A stretch of 64,000 nt of DNA from Candidatus Lloydbacteria bacterium RIFCSPHIGHO2_02_FULL_50_18 (lineage in GTDB: Bacteria > Patescibacteriota > Minisyncoccia > Phycocordibacterales > UBA6899): NCBI GenBank assembly GCA_001821395.1, contig MHLM01000006.1:9733-73732 (forward strand), written 5' to 3'. The first letter of the stretch is position 1. Each line of letters opens with the position of its first letter. Of this stretch, positions 14,268 through 41,185 are shown piece by piece. The notes beneath the pieces are model-generated. The model had not been told where the DNA came from, searched no databases, and saw nothing but the letters and a program-made list of their open reading frames with translations. The position numbers and the translations under genes were made by a program.

Positions 14268-15827
14268 TTATTCGTCGTCATCCATTTTCGGTGCCAGACA
14301 CTTTCGTGTCTCAACAACCTTTCCATCTTCTGCGACGCTTTCGATCTGCACACCGAAGCCCCAAAGGCGAGCGACATGTCGCAACACCTCATCCGTATCG
14401 TCATTCAACGGACGATTATTGGAACGTGTGTGACGCAGCGTCAGCGACCGATCCCCTCGCACATCAACATTCCATACTTGAATGTTCGGCTCCCGGTTTC
14501 CCAGGTTGTATTGATTCGAGAGCACCTCACGAACACGTCGATAGCCGGCATCATCATGGATCGCCGTCACCACGTATTCTTCCTCATTCTCATCATCAAG
14601 GAGCGCGAAGAGATGAAAATCGCGGATGAGTTTCGGACTTAAGAACTGACCGATGAAACTCTCATCTTTGTAGTTGTGCATTGCATCGTGCAATACTGGC
14701 AACCAGTCCTTTCCCGCAATGTCCGGGAACCACTGCCGATCTTCATCGGTCGGCTCCTCACAGATACGCTTGATATCGGTATACATTGCGAAACCGAGCG
14801 CATAGGGATTGAACCCGTTGTAATACCTACTTGAGACCGGCGGCTGGTAGACCACATTGGTATGCGACTTCAGGAACTCGATCATGAGTCCGTCGGACAG
14901 ATACCCGTCATCGAACATCGTGTTCAATATCTTGTGATGCCAAAATGTTGCCCACCCCTCGTTCATCACCTGCGTTTGGCGCTGCGGGTAAAAGTATTGC
15001 GCGATCTTTCGCACGATGCGCACGATCTCTCTTTCCCACGTCTGCAGATGCGGAGCCCGCTTTTCAATGAAGTAGAGCAGGTTTTCCTCAGGCTCTTCCG
15101 GAAAACGTTTTTTCAAAGATTCCTTTGACGCGCTACCCGGTTTCGTTGGAACCGTGCTCCAGAGCTCATTGACCTGCTGCTGCGCATATTCCGCATGCTC
15201 CGCTCTGCGTACCAACTCCTGTGCCAAACTCAATTTTTCCGGATGACGATAGCGGTCTACCCCGTAGTTCATGAGTGCATGGCAGGAATCGAGCACTTCT
15301 TCAACGCGTTCATACCCGTGTCTTTCCTCGCATGCTGCGATGTAATTCTTCGCGTACACGAGGTAGTCAAGGATGCTTCCCGCGTCAGTCCACATGCGGA
15401 ACAAATAGTTGCCCTTAAAGAAACTGTTATGCCCATATGCTGCGTGTGCAATCACCAGCGCCTGCATCCCCATGGTATTTTCTTCCATGAGATAACTGAT
15501 GCATGGACTCGAGTTGATCACGATCTCATAGGCGAGCCCCATTTCCCCGCGATGATAGCGTTGCTCATTGGAGATGAACTCCTTCCCAAAGCTCCAATGC
15601 CGGTAATTGATCGGCATCCCGACAGACGCATATGCGTCCATCATCTGCTCGGCAGTGATGATCTCAAGCTGATTCGGATACGTATCAAGACCGAAGCGCT
15701 CTGCCGTGTCTCTGATCACCCGATGATATTGTTCGATCAGCGGAAATGACCATTCACCCGGCGACGGAAGTCGCTCGTGGGGTCGCTCTCCCGCAGGTAG
15801 CGGGATGCGTGGTATGACCTTGCTCAT
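14268..15827 (-). CDS. spoVR: SpoVR-family protein
   Basis: 519 aa. Third gene of the conserved prkA-yeaH-spoVR arrangement. 4-nt overlap with the upstream gene. Confidence 0.8.
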   Translation of the reverse strand: MSKVIPRIPLPAGERPHERLPSPGEWSFPLIEQYHRVIRDTAERFGLDTYPNQLEIITAEQMMDAYASVGMPINYRHWSFGKEFISNEQRYHRGEMGLAYEIVINSSPCISYLMEENTMGMQALVIAHAAYGHNSFFKGNYLFRMWTDAGSILDYLVYAKNYIAACEERHGYERVEEVLDSCHALMNYGVDRYRHPEKLSLAQELVRRAEHAEYAQQQVNELWSTVPTKPGSASKESLKKRFPEEPEENLLYFIEKRAPHLQTWEREIVRIVRKIAQYFYPQRQTQVMNEGWATFWHHKILNTMFDDGYLSDGLMIEFLKSHTNVVYQPPVSSRYYNGFNPYALGFAMYTDIKRICEEPTDEDRQWFPDIAGKDWLPVLHDAMHNYKDESFIGQFLSPKLIRDFHLFALLDDENEEEYVVTAIHDDAGYRRVREVLSNQYNLGNREPNIQVWNVDVRGDRSLTLRHTRSNNRPLNDDTDEVLRHVARLWGFGVQIESVAEDGKVVETRKCLAPKMDDDE

Positions 15828-17206
15828 GCTTTTCGCTCCTTTTGAAATAATCCACGGAATACGGGATAGATCTCACTCACTGCTTTCACCTTGCGGATAG
15901 CAAAGGACTTGTTTCTCTCGGCCAACTTTGCATATTCGCGCCAGAGGTTTTGCTCCTCTTCGACGACTTGAATATAGGCAAAGTAGCGGCACAAAGGCAA
16001 CAATCTTGCCTCAAGCAGGTCGGAACAGGTCCCACTATCGTTCCCCCAATTATCACCGTCGCTTGCCTGCGCGCCGTAGATATTCCATTCACCTGACGGA
16101 TAGCGTTCACGAATGATCTGCTCCATAAGCAAGAGCGCACTCGAAACGATGGTACCGCCGGTCTCCCTGGAGTGGAAGAATTCTTCTTCCGTCACTTCCT
16201 GTGCTTCAGTGTGATGCCGGATGAACACGATGTCGATCTTTTCATAATGCCGCGTCAAAAAGAGATACAGCAGAATAAAGAAGCGTTTAGACAAGTCTTT
16301 ACGCAGCTCATCCATCGAACCCGAAATATCCATGAGGCAGAACATGACCGCCTTTGAATACGGCATCGGCACACGCATACGAGCGCGATACTTCAGATCG
16401 ATCGGATCAAGATAGGGAATGACCCGCATCTTCGATACGATCGCTGCAATGCGATTTGCGATGCTCTCGTGAGATTCAACCTCTGGATCGTGTCCGATCT
16501 TTGTCTCAAGCACACCGATCTCTTCAGTGAGCTTTTGATGCGCTTCGTCGTAACCGGCCGGACACATATGACAGACCGACTCAAGCTGATCAAGCTCCTC
16601 AAGCAACTCCAGCAACTTTTTGCGGTCGTTCTTGTGGAATGCGATCCCGCGCCCGATCGAATTACGCATCGAATGCACAATGGACAGATTATTCGGTGTC
16701 CCATCGTTCGTAAATCCCGATCGCACGCTCTTATATTCGGGCGTATCAGCAAGTGTCGTTTTGATCAGATTCGGCAACGCGAGGTCGTCGAAAAAGATAT
16801 TCATGAACTCTTCCTTGGTCAGATGGAAAACAAAATCGTCTTCCCCCTCACCCGAATCGCTCGCACTGCCTCCACTTCCCTGTCCGCCCCGTGGCCGCTC
16901 GATACGGTCACCGGTAACGTATTCTTCGTTACCCGGATGAACACCTTCGCGCGAACCACCCGGCCCATGACCGAATACCGGCTCACGGAGGTCACGCTTC
17001 GGAATGCGCACGTCCTCGCCGCCATCTCCCACATCTCGGATCCCGCGACCTTCGATCGCGCGCTTTACCGCCTCACGCACCTGCTCGCTCTGGCGACGCA
17101 GAAAACGTTGGCGATTACCAATAGACTTACCTTTGCCCGCCAAACGACGGTCGATCGGCGGGGGTAGTGTCCCGGAATCAACTCGCGTTATTTCATGATC
17201 ACTCAT
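15824..17206 (-). CDS. YeaH/YhbH-family protein (DUF444, vWA-like)
   Basis: 460 aa. Gly/Ser-rich acidic N-region then a conserved C-domain. GGAG RBS 9 nt upstream. Sits between prkA and spoVR. Confidence 0.8.
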   Translation of the reverse strand: MSDHEITRVDSGTLPPPIDRRLAGKGKSIGNRQRFLRRQSEQVREAVKRAIEGRGIRDVGDGGEDVRIPKRDLREPVFGHGPGGSREGVHPGNEEYVTGDRIERPRGGQGSGGSASDSGEGEDDFVFHLTKEEFMNIFFDDLALPNLIKTTLADTPEYKSVRSGFTNDGTPNNLSIVHSMRNSIGRGIAFHKNDRKKLLELLEELDQLESVCHMCPAGYDEAHQKLTEEIGVLETKIGHDPEVESHESIANRIAAIVSKMRVIPYLDPIDLKYRARMRVPMPYSKAVMFCLMDISGSMDELRKDLSKRFFILLYLFLTRHYEKIDIVFIRHHTEAQEVTEEEFFHSRETGGTIVSSALLLMEQIIRERYPSGEWNIYGAQASDGDNWGNDSGTCSDLLEARLLPLCRYFAYIQVVEEEQNLWREYAKLAERNKSFAIRKVKAVSEIYPVFRGLFQKERKA

Positions 17207-17281
17207 TTGCGTCTCCTAAAGAAAACAGGGTGCGTCTGGCGCACCCTGTAAGGTTTAAATCACAATTGTCGCACGGTTCTC

Positions 17282-19219
17282 TTATGAGGATTTCCGCACG
17301 CGCATATACCACTCACAAAGCAAACGCACCTGTTTCGGTGTGTAGCCTTTTCCGACCATCCGCGTCACGAAATTCTCGTGCTTTTCCGCATCATTGGCAC
17401 TTGCCTTGGGATTGAACGAAATGACCGGAAGCAGCTCTTCAGTATTCGAGAACATCTTCTTCTCGATCACCGTCCGCAGCTTCTCGTAGCTCGTCCACAC
17501 GGGATTCTTCCCTCCATTACTGGCTCGCGCACGAAGCACGAAATTCACGATCTCATTCCGGAAATCCTTCGGATTGGAAATCCCCGCAGGTTTCTCGATC
17601 TTCTCGAGGTCGCTGTTGAGCGCGGCACGATTAAAGGTTTCCCCCGTATCGACGTCGCGATATTCCGTATCTTGGATCCAATAGTCGGCATAGTTCACGT
17701 AACGGTCAAAAATATTCTGACCATACTCGCTGTAACTCTCAAGATACGCCGTCTGAATTTCCTTCCCGATGAACTCCGCATACTTGGTCGCCAATTGCTC
17801 TTTGATGAACGCATGGTATTTGTCGGACTGCTCCTTCGGAAGCTGTTCACGATCGATCTGCTGTTCCAATACATACATGAGATGCACCGGATTTGCCGCG
17901 ATTTCAGACGAGTCGAAGTTGAACACTTTCGACAGGATCTTGAACGCAAAACGCGTCGAGATACCCGTCATGCCTTCGTCGACTCCGGCGTAGTCACGAT
18001 ACTCCCCGTAGCTCTTCGCCTTCGGGTCAGTGTCTTTCAGGCTTTCACCGTCATACACCAACATCTTGGAAAAGAGATTCGAGTTTTCCGGATCTTTGAG
18101 CCGCGTGAGCGTAGCGAACTGCGCCATCATCTTGAACGTCCCCGGAGCACATTTGGCTTCCGAGAGCGATGAGTTGCGAATCAATTTCTCGTAGATCTTG
18201 ATCTCTTCGCTGACGCGGAGACAGTAGGGAACCTTCACGATATAGATACGGTCAAGGAACGCTTCATTGTTCTTATTGCCGCGGAATGTCTTCCATTCGC
18301 TTTCGTTCGAGTGAGCGAGCACGATACCGTCGAACGGGATCGCACCGAAACCCTCAGTACCCTTGTAATTGCCTTCCTGCGTTGCCGTAAGAAGCGGATG
18401 GAGCACCTTAATGGGCGCCTTGAACATCTCGACGAATTCGAGCAGGCCCTGATTGGCCAAACACAGACCTCCCGAGAAGCTATATGCATCAGGGTCGTCC
18501 TGCGAAAGATGCTCGATTTTTCGAATATCGGTCTTCCCAACCAAGGACGAAATGTCCTGATTGTTTTCATCACCCGGCTCTGTCTTTGCGATAGCGATCT
18601 GCCGCAAAATGTTCGGGTAACGTTTCACGACCCTGAATTTGCTGATATCACCGTCGAATTCTTCGGAGGCGAGGCGTTTGACCGCCCATGGTGACAACAC
18701 ACGATTCAAATACCGTCGTGGAATGTTATATTCCTTTTCAAGCATCTCCGCGTCTTCGAGTGCATCGAACAATCCGAGCGGTGATTCGTTCACCGGTGAA
18801 CCTTCGATAGCGAAGAAGGGTACGTCCTGCATGAGCAGTTTCAGCCGTTCCGCGATAGACGATTTGCCGCCGCCAACGGGGCCAAGCAAATAGAGGATCT
18901 GTTTCTTTTCTTCCAGCCCCTGGGCAGAATGACGGAAGTAGGCGACCACTTGTTCAATGGCATCTTCCATACCGTAAAATTCTTCAAAGGCCGGATAGAC
19001 CTTGATGGTCTTATTCGCAAACAGCCGAGACAAGCGCGGATTAGTCCGCGTGTCGATCATCTGAGGTTCGCCGATCGCCTTCAGCATCCGCTCGGAAGCG
19101 GTTGCATAGGCCATTGGATTCCGTTTGCATTCTTCAAGGTACTCCTCAAGCGACATCGATTCTGAACGCAAGCGTTCATGACGTTTTGTTGCCTGAAGAG
19201 AAAAATGACTATTTCCCAT
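17282..19219 (-). CDS. prkA: PrkA serine protein kinase (AAA+ domain)
   Basis: P-loop LLGPVGGGKSSIAERLK. Likely start MGNSHFSL at 19219 with AAGGAG RBS. The track ORF extends to 19273. Confidence 0.9.
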   Translation of the reverse strand: MGNSHFSLQATKRHERLRSESMSLEEYLEECKRNPMAYATASERMLKAIGEPQMIDTRTNPRLSRLFANKTIKVYPAFEEFYGMEDAIEQVVAYFRHSAQGLEEKKQILYLLGPVGGGKSSIAERLKLLMQDVPFFAIEGSPVNESPLGLFDALEDAEMLEKEYNIPRRYLNRVLSPWAVKRLASEEFDGDISKFRVVKRYPNILRQIAIAKTEPGDENNQDISSLVGKTDIRKIEHLSQDDPDAYSFSGGLCLANQGLLEFVEMFKAPIKVLHPLLTATQEGNYKGTEGFGAIPFDGIVLAHSNESEWKTFRGNKNNEAFLDRIYIVKVPYCLRVSEEIKIYEKLIRNSSLSEAKCAPGTFKMMAQFATLTRLKDPENSNLFSKMLVYDGESLKDTDPKAKSYGEYRDYAGVDEGMTGISTRFAFKILSKVFNFDSSEIAANPVHLMYVLEQQIDREQLPKEQSDKYHAFIKEQLATKYAEFIGKEIQTAYLESYSEYGQNIFDRYVNYADYWIQDTEYRDVDTGETFNRAALNSDLEKIEKPAGISNPKDFRNEIVNFVLRARASNGGKNPVWTSYEKLRTVIEKKMFSNTEELLPVISFNPKASANDAEKHENFVTRMVGKGYTPKQVRLLCEWYMRVRKSS

Positions 19220-19589
19220 GACTATCTCCTTATTTACCGGTGAATGATAAGCGAAGTGTGGTTGCGCACCCACATGATTCCTCGCCGCAGAATGTCAAAG
19301 AACGATATTGTTCTTACCCTTTTTCAGACTAACATCGTACTCAACGTCGTAAAGATTGATATATTGTCAAATATGTTGCGCAACTGAAGCATGGGTGAAC
19401 AGCGAGGACAACAGCGACTCTTCCGTGGGTAAAGCTTGGATTTCTCTCGACCTGTCTGCTAGACTAGCCAGATCAAGCACTGAGCGGAAGTACCCCTTGA
19501 GATAACTTGGCATTCGTCCTTGTGAATGAGAAAATATCCAAAAGATGTGCGGCTCCATGGGAGTTTCGAGAGAGTTTTGTGCATTGTGT

Positions 19590-19934: not shown

Positions 19935-20116
19935 CCACGAAGAGTACTTCATTTTTCTAAGGCGGAGTACCGCTAAGAAAAATTGGTCGGTGATTTATTC
20001 AGCATAAGAATGCTTCATAAATATCACAAAGCTTTTCAAATCCTCTCTCGCGACTGAAGCAGCGACCAATTTTTCTTCATGGTATTCCATGTTAGAAAAA
20101 TGAAGTACCCTTGTGG
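19935..20116. repeat. About 182-bp element with nested terminal inverted repeats (MITE-like or long-hairpin RNA)
   Basis: Outer IR CCACGAAGAGTACTTCATTTTTCTAA (19935-19960) versus TTAGAAAAATGAAGTACCCTTGTGG (20092-20116). Inner IR TAAGAAAAATTGGTCG (19973-19989) versus CGACCAATTTTTCTTC (20063-20079). Confidence 0.35.
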
Positions 20117-20130
20117 TGTTCAGTCGCTTC

Positions 20131-20181
20131 GGGCACAAATACAAAAAAGTCGCACTGTGCGACTTTTTTGTATTTGTGCCC
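20131..20181. repeat. 25-bp perfect palindrome (GGGCACAAATACAAAAAAGTCGCAC-TGT-GTGCGACTTTTTTGTATTTGTGCCC) overlapping the 3' end of tRNA-Leu(GAG)
   Basis: Read directly. The 3' arm shares its last 5 nt with the tRNA acceptor end. Possible transcription terminator or recombination site. Confidence 0.5.
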
Positions 20182-20260
20182 GAGAGAGGATTTGAACCTC
20201 CATGCCCTTACGAGCGCTACCACCTCAAGGTAGTGCGTCTACCAATTTCGCCACCCGGGC
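20177..20260 (-). tRNA. tRNA-Leu (anticodon GAG)
   Basis: Reverse complement GCCCGGGTGGCGAAATTGGTAGACGCACTACCTTGAGGTGGTAGCGCTCGTAAGGGCATGGAGGTTCAAATCCTCTCTCGGGCA. Anticodon loop TTGAGGT. Long variable arm. Confidence 0.85.
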
Positions 20261-20358
20261 TTGGGATTTAACTACTATACGCAAAACATCCGATATTTTC
20301 AAGCTCAAAGAAAAAAACGAGGTGCCCTCAGTAAAACTTGGTCACCCCGCTCTCGTTC

Positions 20359-20811: not shown

Positions 20812-20969
20812 AAGTTGATATTAATGATAGTATTCGCGTGTCACTTATGCAGAGGGGGGCTTTTATGCCGACCAACCTGCTCCACGTATGCGAATGTAGT
20901 CGCCAATCTAGCACGACCACCCCCATCGTGCAACTGTCCTATATTTTGCTTCATATTTTCTCACTTTTT

Positions 20970-20990
20970 TGTCAAGGTTTAACCTTGACA
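20970..20990. repeat. REP palindrome TGTCAAGGTTTAACCTTGACA (copy 1, 5' flank of RAYT)
   Basis: Perfect 10-bp stem with 1-nt loop, flanked by T-runs. Same 21-mer at 40902-40922. Variant with an extra A at 21731-21751. Confidence 0.7.
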
Positions 20991-21005
20991 TTTTGCTAAG
21001 TTTCG

Positions 21006-21692
21006 ATGAGAATGTGCGCTATGGCAAGATCAATTACGTTCGCCCCCGGTGAGTATTACCATATCTATAATCGTGGCACCGACAAACGCCTCATCTTCCT
21101 TGACCAAGCAGACCATGAGCGCTTCATCTCTCTCCTCTACCTCTGCAACAGCGGCATCCCCATTCATCGGAGTGATCACCGCGTCACTTCTCTCGATGAT
21201 ATTTTTCTTATTCCGAAGGAGACATCACTGGTAAACATCGGTGCATACTGCCTCATGCCAAATCACTTTCATTTATTGTTGAACGAACAATCAGAAGGCG
21301 GCATCAGTCTCTTCATGCAAAAGCTCATGACCGCGTATACGATGTACTTCAACAAAAGGCATCTCCGCAAAGGAACGCTTTTTGAAGGCAGTTTTCAGGC
21401 GACACACGCGCAGAAAGATGAATACCTGAAGTATCTTTTCGCGTATATCCACTTGAATCCGATCGGCATCAACGCCGAAGGATGGAAAGAGCACCACATT
21501 AAGGACACCAAGGCGGCAGAACTCTTCATTCAAACATACCCGTATTCAAGCCACCTTGATTATGCAAAGTTAGGATCCCCGCGCAGACAAGGAGTAATCC
21601 TCAACAAGCTCGCATTTCCCGAATACTTCGAAAAGCAACGGGATTTCAATGAATACATTAAAGACTGGATGAGTGGGGACAAAGAGCCATAG
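21006..21692 (+). mobile_element. REP-associated tyrosine transposase (RAYT / IS200-like Y1 HUH transposase)
   Basis: HUH motif LMPNHFHLLL. YHIYNRG N-motif. Catalytic Tyr context KYLFAYIHLNP. The gene is bracketed by the two REP palindromes. Alternative start MARSITF at 21021. Confidence 0.75.
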
Positions 21693-21730
21693 TTTGAGAC
21701 TACCCCCAGTCGCCCTCCGCCGTCCACGCA

Positions 21731-21751
21731 TGTCAAGGTTAAACCTTGACA
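21731..21751. repeat. REP palindrome TGTCAAGGTTAAACCTTGACA (copy 2, 3' flank of RAYT)
   Basis: Read directly. 10-bp stem. Confidence 0.7.
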
Positions 21752-21819
21752 AAAAAGGTCAAAAAAATGGCTTAAAATATGAGATAGGCTGTCGCTGGAT
21801 TATGAAGATGGTGTGCGCC

Positions 21820-28589: not shown

Positions 28590-29060
28590 CTACTCGTCAT
28601 CAGAAAATTCTTCCTGCAGTTTTGGGAAATGTTTATCCAAATAACTCTGCAGGATGATGGCCGCAGCCGACGCATCATTTTGGGGATTATCCCCCTGCAA
28701 ATGCATTGCTTCCCGGGAAGAAAGCACTTCGTTCATAAGAAAAATGGGGAGCGACGTCGTCGTCTTCAACTGTCCCATGAACACGCCGATCTTTTTCATG
28801 ATCGGATTCGGTAGATTCTGAAAATTCAACGACTCACCAATAACGATGGCATCAATGTGTTCCTTTTGACAAATAGCAACAATATCCTCGATCAAGGAGT
28901 GAGTATTCAAGATGACGCACAAAGGAAAGGCCATCGTTCCCCCATCTGGGGCAACCGCAAGCCCAACGCGCTTTGTTCCAAAATCAATACCTAAATATTT
29001 CATCTCTACACAGTAGCGCACGTTCTCTGAGGGCACAACGTGATGAGTTTCGGTGAGCAA
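28590..29060 (-). CDS. ruvX: Holliday-junction resolvase-like RuvX/YqgF
   Basis: MKYLGIDFGTKRVGLAVA motif. Probable start at 29003. Confidence 0.8.
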   Translation of the reverse strand: MLTETHHVVPSENVRYCVEMKYLGIDFGTKRVGLAVAPDGGTMAFPLCVILNTHSLIEDIVAICQKEHIDAIVIGESLNFQNLPNPIMKKIGVFMGQLKTTTSLPIFLMNEVLSSREAMHLQGDNPQNDASAAAIILQSYLDKHFPKLQEEFSDDE

Positions 29061-29123
29061 TCAAGCAAAGCGCTCTCCTTTGACTAATCAAAATGGCGCC
29101 ACATGGCGCTCATTTTTAACGGG

Positions 29124-29210
29124 CGGAGGAGGTGAGATTCGAACTCACGGTCCACTTACATGGACGACGGTTTTCAAGACCGTTGCCTTAAACCACTCAG
29201 CCACTCCTCC
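29124..29210 (-). tRNA. tRNA-Ser (anticodon UGA)
   Basis: Reverse complement GGAGGAG...CTCCTCC acceptor. Anticodon stem-loop ACGGT-CTTGAAA-ACCGT. Long variable arm. T-loop TTCGAAT. 87 nt. Confidence 0.85.
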
Positions 29211-29342
29211 CTTATTGCACTCAGCCTCTCTTTCTAAATCGAACGAAACGCACAAATTCATTCGTGCTCATCACTATACTGAAAAATAGATAATTGGCAA
29301 AAGATCAATGTGGTATTGCTAATTCTTTTTTAATCGGAGCGC

Positions 29343-31334: not shown

Positions 31335-31505
31335 CGAGAAAAAATAGCATAGGACTCGTCCACCAATAACTTCATAGTTATTGGTGATGACGGTCCTTTG
31401 TGCATCATCCATTTTTTATAGCAACTTATTCATGGATGAGGCCATGGCTCACCATCGTAGAAAAAAACACACTCATGAATCATGAGTGTGTTTTTTGTTT
31501 CAAAA

Positions 31506-34344: not shown

Positions 34345-34420
34345 CGTACCTCGGCCTTTAAAAAATCAAAAACATGTGTTAGTATCGCTTTGTTTCACCA
34401 TTGTTATATACTTTCCAATA

Positions 34421-34525
34421 TCCCCCTATAACTGTTTTGGTAGATAACAGGAATTAGGGAAAATAAAGGAAAAAATCTACAGTAATGAACGAAGCACCCA
34501 CTATAGCTGTTTTGGTAGACAACAG
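34421..34525 (+). repeat. Two tandem degenerate copies of the tRNA-Lys 5' portion at about 74-bp period
   Basis: TCCCCCTATAACTGTTTTGGTAGATAACAG (34421-34450) and CACCCACTATAGCTGTTTTGGTAGACAACAG (34495-34525) versus the tRNA 5' end CCCCCTATAGCTCAGCTGGTAGAGCAG at 34570. Confidence 0.6.
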
Positions 34526-34569
34526 CGGATAAGTGTAGCCAGAAATAACTCCACCACACACAATGACAT

Positions 34570-34642
34570 CCCCCTATAGCTCAGCTGGTAGAGCAGTAGC
34601 CTTTTAAGCTAACGGTCGCAGGTTCGAGCCCTGCTGGGGGGA
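34570..34642 (+). tRNA. tRNA-Lys (anticodon UUU)
   Basis: CCCCCTA/TGGGGGG acceptor. D-arm GCTCAGCTGGTAGAGC. Anticodon loop CTTTTAA. T-arm GCAGGTTCGAGCCCTGC. Confidence 0.85.
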
Positions 34643-34650
34643 CAAGACAT

Positions 34651-34815: not shown

Positions 34816-34999
34816 TGTGCTCTATTCCCCCCAAGAAGGTGCTTTGCGGCGACTAATTTTTCTTATTCGCTAAATGAGTGAGCGACATGAGAAAGCTTGC
34901 GTTCTCATGTTCGAGCGAATGACGCGAAAAAGAGGTCGTCCGATTAGCGGTACTCCGCCTTAGAAATACGTCATAACTATTGTTCTGATCCTCGTAGCT

Positions 35000-40790: not shown

Positions 40791-40901
40791 GCAAAAAGCG
40801 GGGGTCTTTCACTTCGTCTATTAACGGTTCATTCCAATGACTTCATCCTCGACTCTCCAACGAACTCATCCTATATTTTTCAACATATTTTCACCGTTTT
40901 T

Positions 40902-40922
40902 TGTCAAGGTTTAACCTTGACA
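40902..40922. repeat. REP palindrome copy 3 (TGTCAAGGTTTAACCTTGACA) flanked by T6/A6
   Basis: Identical to copy 1 at 20970-20990. Intergenic upstream of polA. Confidence 0.7.
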
Positions 40923-40951
40923 AAAAACGTCGATGGAGGAGCGGGGGGTGT

Positions 40952-41185
40952 TTAATCTTTATCCTCACCCCATCCTGATCCAAACTCATAATTAAGCAGC
41001 GTGCGCGCCTCATCCACGTCCTCTTCTCGAAGCGCAAAAAGGTCGAAACCAAAGGCCTCTCCACTCGTTTCAGATCTCGCTCCTTCACGATTGCGAATGA
41101 AGCTCTTGATCCCATGCGTGATCAAGAACTGGCGTGTATCTCGCGCCTGATCCGCCTCGCGAAAGAATTTGATCCGCGTACTCAT
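40952..41185 (-). CDS. Small hypothetical protein translationally coupled to tsaE
   Basis: 77-aa ORF. 4-nt overlap with the tsaE stop. Confidence 0.4.
   Translation of the reverse strand: MSTRIKFFREADQARDTRQFLITHGIKSFIRNREGARSETSGEAFGFDLFALREEDVDEARTLLNYEFGSGWGEDKD

Follow-up and report, generated by a model that had tools for sequence, protein, structure and literature searches.

A Y1 HUH gene of the REP-associated transposase type between inverted hairpins in a Candidatus Lloydbacteria genome

Work on repetitive extragenic palindromes (REPs) and REP-associated tyrosine transposases (RAYTs) has hardly reached beyond Proteobacteria and a few further phyla, and both the function of RAYTs and the way in which REPs spread are still debated. 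Here, we report a locus from Candidatus Lloydbacteria bacterium RIFCSPHIGHO2_02_FULL_50_18, a member of the Patescibacteria, in which a gene for a Y1 HUH protein stands between two inverted copies of a 21-nucleotide (nt) palindrome, with a third copy 19 kb away. The stretch analyzed, called the window throughout, was 64,000 nt long (GenBank assembly GCA_001821395.1, contig MHLM01000006.1, positions 9,733 to 73,732, forward strand), and coordinates are counted from its first letter. No published account of this palindrome, or of RAYT/REP systems in the candidate phyla radiation (CPR)/Patescibacteria, was found in the searchable literature.

Results

The Y1 HUH gene (class-2 TnpAY1/RAYT-like; 21021 to 21692, plus strand) encodes 223 amino acids (aa) from the ATG at 21021 used in public gene calls; no public protein record was found for an alternative start at 21006. 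It is the only Y1 gene copy in the window and lies between rplS and a convergent, rluD-like pseudouridine synthase gene, with no tnpB among the neighbors. A search for TGTCAAGGTTWAACCTTGACA with up to three mismatches returned three sites, all exact (20970 to 20990, 21731 to 21751, and 40902 to 40922), and no degenerate copy elsewhere in the window; zero matches were expected by chance (100 dinucleotide-preserving shuffles). The palindrome has the form TGTCAAGGTT(T/A)AACCTTGACA. As single-stranded DNA, copy 1 (TGTCAAGGTTTAACCTTGACA, perfect over 21 nt) and copy 2 fold into a 9-bp stem with a 3-nt loop (−8.2 kcal/mol with z = −5.2, and −8.5 kcal/mol, respectively). At copy 3, the palindrome is longer (35 nt, perfect, 40895 to 40929; 16-bp stem, −17 kcal/mol) because flanking T6/A6 plus CG extend the symmetry. 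This copy stands between tandem genes, 30 nt past a 77-aa open reading frame (ORF; stop at 40952) and upstream of polA, which was recognized by its DNA_pol_A and 5′-3′ exonuclease domains.

The repeated unit exceeds the palindrome: about 54 to 58 nt are common to the copies, as an asymmetric unit of ~55 nt in which a one-sided tail of 33 to 36 nt (AAAAAA-N5-GAAAATATG-N4-AAAATATAGGA) adjoins the palindrome, and the Y1 gene is therefore bracketed by 58-nt inverted repeats (79% complementary, tails outward). The left arm (20934 to 20991) comprises a lineage-specific tail (20934 to 20969), directed away from the Y1 gene and towards rplS, and copy 1. The right arm (21730 to 21787) comprises copy 2 and a tail (21752 to 21787) likewise directed outward, entering the convergent rluD-like gene at its 3′ end. 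Solo copy 3 (40868 to 40929), with its tail (40868 to 40901) towards polA, matched copy 1 over 54 nt at 89% identity (40869 to 40922). Besides the window, the tail was found only in close relatives (JAYUQG01 and a few metagenome contigs). A target-site duplication was sought by eye at the ends of the 58-nt arms, where a 4-nt coincidence (CTGT) was unconvincing and was rejected. The window held no pairs like those of bacterial interspersed mosaic elements (BIMEs) or REPINs (inverted REP doublets at short distance); close pairs or clusters of the hairpin were seen only in a few other loci (L079 and L136). The GT[AG]G foot (GTAG/GTGG) was absent from either end of the three window copies and of 149 aligned copies, in which the hairpin foot reads N-N-T/GTCAAGG.

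The predicted protein contains NHFHLLL and YIHLNP and matched the Pfam profile Y1_Tnp (PF01797) at 36.3 bits (cut-off, 23). Its key motifs are NHFH (residues 81 to 84), GSFQA (FQ, 125 to 126), YIHLNP (142 to 147), and YSSH (SS, 176 to 177), and the HUH, FQ, YIHLNP, and SS residues were invariant across 42 homologues. With these results, a sequence-only reading of the window, which had described a Y1 HUH transposase-like gene between 21-nt palindromes at 20970 and 21731 and an identical palindrome with T6/A6 upstream of polA, proved accurate. An AlphaFold (AF2) model (pLDDT, 89.7) was searched against the PDB with Foldseek, giving as top match 4er8_A, the Escherichia coli REP-associated transposase bound to a REP hairpin (E = 4.4e-6; TM score [target], 0.66; root-mean-square deviation, 3.5 Å); IS608 and ISDra2 TnpA matched more weakly (E ~1e-3), and a PDB sequence search with the protein gave no match. 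The model is helical over its last 70 residues, and no Pfam match to a C-terminal helix-turn-helix (HTH; Bac_DnaA_C, HTH_23, or HTH_28-like) was obtained at E ≤1. On the NCBIfam profile REP_Tyr_transpos (NF047646), the protein reached 37.9 bits with a cut-off of 80 bits, and it is therefore not a canonical RAYT equivalog.

Class-2 TnpAY1 proteins carry the motif Y-x-x-x-N-P, as opposed to Y-x-x-x-Q in IS200 transposases (PMC6006769). Subclass 2.1 has the motifs NH[YF]H, FQ (for WQ), Y[IV]HLNP, and a proximal SS tail, with a median length of ~238 aa (PMC6006769, Table 1), and corresponds to the Group 1 RAYTs (PMC5581495) and to the TIRYTs of Di Nocera et al., which are associated with terminal inverted repeats (TIRs) (PMC3733652); no REPs were reported for this branch (PMC6006769). 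Judged by motifs, not by those authors' profiles, the window protein appears closest to this TnpAY1 subclass 2.1/TIRYT/Group 1 RAYT branch. The evidence places it with the RAYT-type Y1 HUH proteins and not with classical IS200 transposases; the RAYT identity that had been proposed from the sequence is borne out by the class-2 motif and the 4ER8 fold, and fails at the NCBIfam RAYT cut-off.

A sigma-70-like promoter of the Y1 gene (20985 to 21013, plus strand; 10/12 consensus matches) overlaps copy 1, the right end of which supplies the −35 box TTGACA; the −10 box GAGAAT comes after a spacer of 17 nt. From there it is 7 nt to the ATG, and the mRNA is therefore probably leaderless. A −10-like hexamer precedes the start codon in 12/12 homologous loci (mostly 6 to 7 nt upstream; nearer in L039, L023, and L127), with TTGACA 16 to 18 nt upstream of it in 7/12, and in several the stop codon lies within the downstream hairpin (...VKVEP*). 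Since the upstream hairpin contains the −35 box of its own promoter, binding by the protein would autoregulate the Y1 gene. The window protein ends in ...GDKEP* (21665 to 21692), where the ...VKVEP* of several homologues is encoded by the downstream palindrome, and a decayed older palindrome may lie at its stop codon, 39 nt before copy 2.

The repeat tail was also considered as a promoter for rplS or polA and was set aside, with no −10 box at usable spacing and with the copy 2 tail entering a convergent gene; in view of a GAAAATAT motif near tRNA-Leu, a promoter role may still apply. Motifs of the GAAAATAT..GGA kind, similar to the tail, lie in presumed tRNA-Leu promoter regions (20289 to 20299 and ~19535 to 19550), and TTGAAA-17-TATAGT stands upstream of tRNA-Leu(gag). 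The tail may be derived from, or mimic, promoter-proximal sequence.

An identical Y1 protein was encoded on 15 metagenome contigs (Rifle aquifer and others), each time between rplS and the pseudouridine synthase gene. The order rplS-Y1-rluD-uppS was kept in three related metagenome-assembled genomes (MAGs; JAYUQG01, DIZR01/UBA6023, and a Lloydbacteria MAG), with identities of 83 to 93% for rplS and 62 to 74% for Y1. A search with the Y1 protein returned 6204 homologues, mostly on one contig apiece. The Y1 gene is thus resident, single or low copy, and vertically inherited, not an active insertion sequence (IS). Carriage by phages was examined and dropped, with a single palindrome match in 2.9 million viral contigs. 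A PrkA/DUF444/SpoVR operon adjoins the locus (14268 to 19273; Pfam labels, public gene calls).

One genome per species was scanned for GTCAAGGTTNAACCTTGAC, yielding at least 115 stretches where ~9 were expected by chance in the whole genome collection (our own arithmetic); the source genome was not among the matches listed. Those listed were nearly all from Patescibacteria (Taylor-, Lloyd-, Zambryski-, Nomura-, Yanofsky-, Vogel-, Wolfe-, and Gottesmanbacteria, and MAGs labeled Saccharibacteria). At least 10 loci from different Patescibacteria lineages had a Y1 homologue (36 to 74% identity) between two exact GTCAAGGTTNAACCTTGAC copies, so the palindrome is not confined to the three sites of the window. 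Other Y1 homologues were bracketed by different but related hairpins (ACGAGGTCGAACCTCGT, ACCGAGGCAAGGCCTCGGT, GTCGAGGTCSGACCTCGAC, and GCGTCGA..TCGACGC). Spelled out, these alternative classes are ACGAGGT-CGA-ACCTCGT; ACCGAGGC-AAG-GCCTCGGT, which flanks the Y1 gene in L099; GTCGAGGTC-S-GACCTCGAC; and GCGTCGA...TCGACGC. The hairpin class shifts together with the Y1 subfamily, a co-variation of protein and hairpin as in RAYT/REP systems.

Related MAGs carried at least 6 to 10 palindrome copies each. The density of solo copies was one per 64 kb in the window and ~1 extra per 100 kb of fetched loci, and 800 kb of loci held 132 exact copies versus 11 with one to three mismatches, a count partly biased by the choice of loci. 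A metagenome scan with the A-tract-extended pattern returned 10 contigs, the source organism not being among them. The hairpin family is low copy, at ~10 per genome, not the tens to hundreds of canonical REPs.

Three sets of loci stood apart. The main exception to the Patescibacteria was the thiotrophic gill symbiont of Bathymodiolus heckerae, a gammaproteobacterium (NZ_FXLV01; L040, L044, L053, L097, L110, and L121), with eight exact palindromes and a degraded Y1 homologue (51 to 74% identity in fragments), which suggests horizontal transfer out of Patescibacteria followed by gene decay. On OCZT010000018.1 (L136, 4167 to 4434), three palindromes spaced by ~120 to 130 nt lie in or at the end of a 1470-codon ORF beside a Y1 unit, at least two of them in Thr/Ser-rich repeats; the hairpin is here carried in, or has seeded, a tandem coding repeat. 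A distant Y1 homologue in L138 (39.5% identity over residues 1 to 193) has its own hairpin class, GTCGAGGTCSGACCTCGAC (378 and 870), one copy of which is apparently inside the Y1 gene, and a solo of the GTCAAGGTT type lies 2.4 kb off, so that two classes occur on one contig.

Base pairing at positions flanking the 19-nt core was assessed in the 149 aligned copies against column-preserving shuffles. Watson-Crick pairs were found at position ±1 in 93% of copies (T:A; shuffled, 84%, maximum 88%), at ±2 in 68%, with all four pair types (shuffled, 32%), at ±3 in 50% (shuffled, 37%), and at ±4 in 40% (shuffled, 30%). The stem extends to as much as 15 bp in individual copies, and the flanks are genome specific (CCAAT..ATTGG in one MAG, AAATT..AATTT in another, and T6..A6 in the window). 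Such covariation without sequence conservation indicates intrastrand pairing, not duplex recognition, and the alignment thus points to the hairpin, rather than a duplex site, as the conserved feature. Single-stranded hairpins are what Y1 HUH enzymes recognize (IS608 and E. coli TnpAREP, 4ER8).

Among the matches listed, 110 solo copies could be classified by placement (ORFs of at least 100 codons): 64 lay inside ORFs, 28 between tandem genes, and 13 between convergent genes, with only 5 between divergent genes, the rarest of the intergenic classes (5/46). The intergenic preference for tandem and convergent over divergent positions resembles that of REPs. Intragenic hosts were LigA (two sites), leucyl-tRNA synthetase (LeuRS), and RecJ, as well as arginyl-tRNA synthetase (ArgRS; two sites), UvrC, GatB, Dus, RNase R/II, SecA, asparagine synthase, a class-I tRNA synthetase, and a flavin adenine dinucleotide (FAD) oxidase. 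The palindrome was nearly always read in the frame [M/L/V]SR[L/F]NLD[I/M/N/S/T], rarely as CQG[S/L]TLT, and the first and last residues of the peptide covary as the ±2 base pair predicts (M..I/M, L..S/N, and V..T).

Intragenic REPs are known as insertions, notably in replication and repair genes (PMC3733652), and a 21-nt insertion was considered as the origin of all the intragenic copies. It fits LigA site 2, where the peptide adds 7 residues compared with ligases of solved structure, and perhaps RecJ, with a 5- to 9-residue gap. It is contradicted at LeuRS and LigA site 1, which show no gap relative to the Thermus, E. coli, or Bacillus enzymes. In the closest homologues, the segment is of modal length, at 33 residues for LigA in 106/107 (SR[LF]NLD in only 3/107) and 28 residues for LeuRS in 78/103.

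A comparison of core and flank identity at orthologous intragenic sites (100% versus 65%) was discarded as circular, the loci having been picked by exact core match. In its place, homologues were chosen by peptide only, and their DNA was then inspected. In P0234, the 21-mer is exact and its arms measure 13 nt. Arms of 13 nt are also present in P0191, which reads ATCGAGGTT-A-AACCTCGAT; four synonymous changes, forming two compensatory pairs, set it apart from the canonical 21-mer. TRLNLV and SRLN(L)E/V variants keep 7- to 8-nt arms through paired changes. Under synonymous codon resampling with each gene's own usage, the probabilities of an arm length at least as great as that observed were 0.017, 0.026, 0.34, 0.03, 4.6e-4, and 5.7e-4.

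Hairpin sequence at a given site also differed between genomes. LigA has GTCAAGGTT...AACCTTGAC in some and ATCGAGGTT...AACCTCGAT in another. For LeuRS, one genome carries GTCAAGGTT-G-AACCTTGAC and a close relative AGGC-AAG-GCCT; at this site, the closest homologue (77% identical) has a hairpin of another class, ATTGTTAGGC-AAG-GCCTCACAAT, in the same place, with the core of the ACCGAGGC-AAG-GCCTCGGT hairpins. These few cases suggest that intragenic hairpins persist at a site while their sequence switches class, for which simple transposition is no explanation. The class at an intragenic site appears to track the class that flanks the Y1 genes; by this expectation, GCA_964358635.1 is predicted to have TCGAGGTTNAACCTCGA beside its Y1 gene. 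We tentatively raise the possibility, though a doubtful one, that the Y1 enzyme and its cognate hairpin write or maintain perfect hairpins in place, by replacement and not insertion, at orthologous positions in essential genes (LigA, LeuRS, ArgRS, UvrC, RecJ, and SecA), so that the hairpins would be more than selfish extragenic repeats. If true, hairpins would propagate in a manner not described before, or RAYT-like enzymes would serve the host in some function.

Discussion

The locus is probably a Patescibacteria (Parcubacteria/Paceibacteria-like) version of a REPtron/TIRtron: a domesticated class-2 Y1 HUH enzyme with inverted cognate hairpins and a few dispersed solos. The data show the locus anatomy, the protein fold, the conserved unit of a gene plus two hairpins in many genomes, the joint variation of protein and hairpin within the family, and the covariation of the outer stem; the overlap of hairpin and promoter also favors this reading. 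By analogy with E. coli TnpAREP and IS608 TnpA, the Y1 enzyme would bind the hairpin once extruded in single-stranded DNA (at replication forks, for instance), cleaving and rejoining DNA beside it. This activity, directly or via repair or template switching, could make and retain hairpin copies, and binding at the upstream hairpin could also autoregulate the Y1 gene. The REP/RAYT organization proposed in the sequence-only reading, a RAYT-type gene with hairpins and a third copy elsewhere, was of the right kind but did not hold in its details. The flanking inverted hairpins, the solo copies, and the same layout in other genomes uphold it; the missing GT[AG]G foot, the low copy number, the intragenic position of about half of the solo copies, and the absence of BIMEs from the window do not.

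The closest known systems share some features with the window system and differ in others. Like the E. coli REPtron (TnpAREP/RAYT/YafM; 4ER8; PMC3479197, PMC8266576), it has a single-copy Y1 HUH gene, inverted flanking hairpins, dispersed copies, a Y-x-x-x-N-P motif, and hairpin-protein co-variation between lineages, and the E. coli protein is its best structural match. Unlike E. coli TnpAREP, to which it is only 14% identical, the window protein falls below the NCBIfam equivalog cut-off; and unlike E. coli REPs, the window hairpin lacks the GT[AG]G guide, is a perfect rather than an imperfect palindrome, numbers ~10 copies versus hundreds, forms no BIME/REPIN doublets in the window, has half of its solos within genes, and keeps its core across a superphylum, not one species group. 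Frequent in-frame copies and the overlap of the hairpin with the promoter of the Y1 gene are further departures from canonical REP/RAYT systems. With subclass 2.1 (Quentin et al. 2018, PMC6006769), Group 1 (Bertels et al. 2017, PMC5581495), and TIRYT proteins (Di Nocera et al. 2013, PMC3733652), the window protein shares the motifs NH[YF]H, FQ, Y[IV]HLNP, and SS and the length class of ~220 to 240 aa. The 58-nt inverted repeats recall the long TIRs of TIRtrons, some of which contain self-complementary tracts, unrelated and partly self-complementary TIRs also being listed (PMC3733652). Group 1 RAYTs likewise have a moderately abundant flanking repeat, their flanking 16-mers occurring ~12 times genome wide (PMC5581495). 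Unlike subclass 2.1, the window protein has no detectable C-terminal DnaA_C/HTH domain, and unlike many TIRYT TIRs, its repeats lack GGGGWSAS. A perfect hairpin is the conserved core of the window system, whereas no REP-like hairpins were reported near subclass 2.1 genes; those surveys (subclass 2.1, Group 1, and TIRYT) did not include Patescibacteria.

The in-frame copies have parallels of their own. The palindromic elements of Rickettsia (Rickettsia palindromic elements [RPE], said to have been described by Ogata and colleagues in 2000) are reportedly tolerated in frame within genes. Like these and intragenic REPs (PMC3733652), the window-type palindrome occurs in frame in housekeeping genes, those of replication and repair in particular (LigA, UvrC, RecJ, aminoacyl-tRNA synthetases, and SecA). 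Intragenic REPs and RPE add 7 to 50 residues, whereas the 21-mer often replaces a stretch of equal length (LeuRS and LigA site 1); unlike them, it encodes one fixed peptide, [MLV]SR[LF]NLD[IMNST], with palindromy kept by compensatory, partly synonymous changes.

Several points weigh against reading the locus as a REPtron/TIRtron. Canonical REP hallmarks are absent, the family having no GT[AG]G foot and being neither high copy nor extragenic, and the protein falls short of the RAYT profile cut-off (37.9 of 80 bits). The exact core is kept across very divergent lineages, unlike species-specific REPs, and this wide conservation could rather speak for a host function. At several of the intragenic sites, length is the same as in the orthologues, which plain insertion of a mobile 21-mer does not explain. 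The copy number of the source genome comes from the 64-kb window, and we infer binding and cleavage by the Y1 protein by analogy.

The palindrome could instead be a duplex operator or bidirectional promoter for a dimeric regulator, possibly the Y1 protein acting as a repressor only, with the solos regulating rplS, polA, and other genes. TTGACA stands at both ends of the palindrome, and the good Y1 promoter (TTGACA-17-GAGAAT) recurs in layout in 7/12 homologues. Copies 1 and 3 precede rplS and polA, at which their common 33-nt tail is aimed, and the tRNA-Leu promoter region has a similar GAAAATAT..GGA motif. No acceptable −10 box, however, lies tailward at 16 to 18 nt from TTGACA, and the copy 2 tail enters the 3′ end of a convergent gene. 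About half of the solos are intragenic, with the divergent intergenic position rarest (5/46), and the covarying, nonconserved flanks indicate intrastrand pairing. We regard a duplex operator as unlikely.

An autonomous IS of the IS200/IS605 type (~0.85 kb), with the hairpins as its ends and the copy upstream of polA as a remnant or an element like a miniature inverted-repeat transposable element (MITE), is a quite improbable account. The unit is compact (−35 box in the hairpin, a probably leaderless mRNA, and, in several homologues, a stop codon in the downstream hairpin), it occurs in different lineages, and the degraded copy in the gammaproteobacterial mussel symbiont suggests horizontal transfer. 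IS608 and ISDra2 TnpA are structural relatives, and the locus shares with IS200/IS608/ISDra2 the Y1 HUH fold, subterminal hairpins (recognized single stranded on the IS side), and a size of ~0.7 to 0.85 kb. The protein nonetheless has Y-x-x-x-N-P (class 2), not Y-x-x-x-Q (PMC6006769), and 223 aa versus ~150, and neither the frequent tnpB nor multiple copies accompany it. There is one copy in the window, in an rplS/rluD context that is constant across strains and the three related MAGs, and homologous proteins are mostly on one contig apiece. Both ends carry the same symmetric hairpin within 58-nt inverted repeats, versus the asymmetric left and right ends (LE/RE) of IS200/IS605.

We think it very unlikely that the palindrome is a genome-wide DNA signal recruited by the host (with a logic like that of parS or DNA-uptake sequences), kept by selection or recombination drive and merely associated with Y1. 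An exact 19-nt core common to many Patescibacteria lineages would suit such a signal, as would the scarcity of degenerate copies (132 exact versus 11, a partly biased count), the copies in essential genes without length change, and palindromy at the LigA site beyond that given by peptide and codon usage (P ~5e-4, two unbiased cases). The hairpin class, however, changes with the Y1 subfamily, and the motif always brackets a Y1 gene; SR[LF]NLD in only 3/107 close LigA homologues shows that individual sites decay or change, and ~1 copy per 100 kb is far sparser than known uptake sequences.

Bidirectional intrinsic termination, which the sequence-only reading had offered as a second role, is a highly improbable function even with stable G+C-containing stems beside T/A runs. 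At copies 2 and 3, either strand reads T-run, stem, A-run, which is opposite to the order in a terminator; the only terminator-like score is at copy 1, the one copy with T's after it, on the plus strand, where no plus-strand gene ends upstream; and many copies lie within coding regions.

On the REPtron/TIRtron reading, a simple perfect hairpin kept across a large radiation of small-genome bacteria is a useful case, and a RAYT branch (subclass 2.1/TIRYT) earlier thought to be without REP-like hairpins now has them. The in-frame sites in essential genes offer a direct comparative way to tell insertion of hairpins by the enzyme from their conversion or mere protection, and are a natural example of DNA-structure constraint overriding protein coding. 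For annotation, the label "transposase" in CPR genomes misdescribes such genes, which act as residents.

Other repeats and RNA features

Several further repeats were noted in the window. A perfect palindrome of 27 + 27 nt with 1 nt between its arms (20129 to 20183) adjoins the 3′ end of tRNA-Leu(gag) (20176 to 20260, minus strand) or overlaps with it; its sequence has no relation to that of the Y1 hairpin. Between the two tRNA-Leu genes, <1 kb from the Y1 locus, lies a 61-nt inverted repeat (19940 to 20000 and 20052 to 20112; 80% complementary), a 23-nt part of which (19954 to 19976) recurs inverted at 34944 to 34966. Positions 62169 to 62214 form a 46-nt perfect palindrome with 23-nt arms and no spacer.

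The ARAGORN call of a permuted transfer-messenger RNA (tmRNA) at 28596 to 29216, overlapping tRNA-Ser, had no Rfam tmRNA match there and is probably false. An element of ~80 nt occurs twice, inverted and 30 kb apart (31350 to 31426 and 61625 to 61702; 93 to 100% identical), each time intergenic and just before a terminator-like hairpin; it had no Rfam match at the gathering threshold and may represent a small RNA or belong to a further family of repeats. Three 25- to 29-nt repeats spaced by ~75 nt (34420 to 34592) run into tRNA-Lys (34570 to 34643) and have the look of either tRNA-like remnants or a tandemly duplicated 5′ part of the tRNA.

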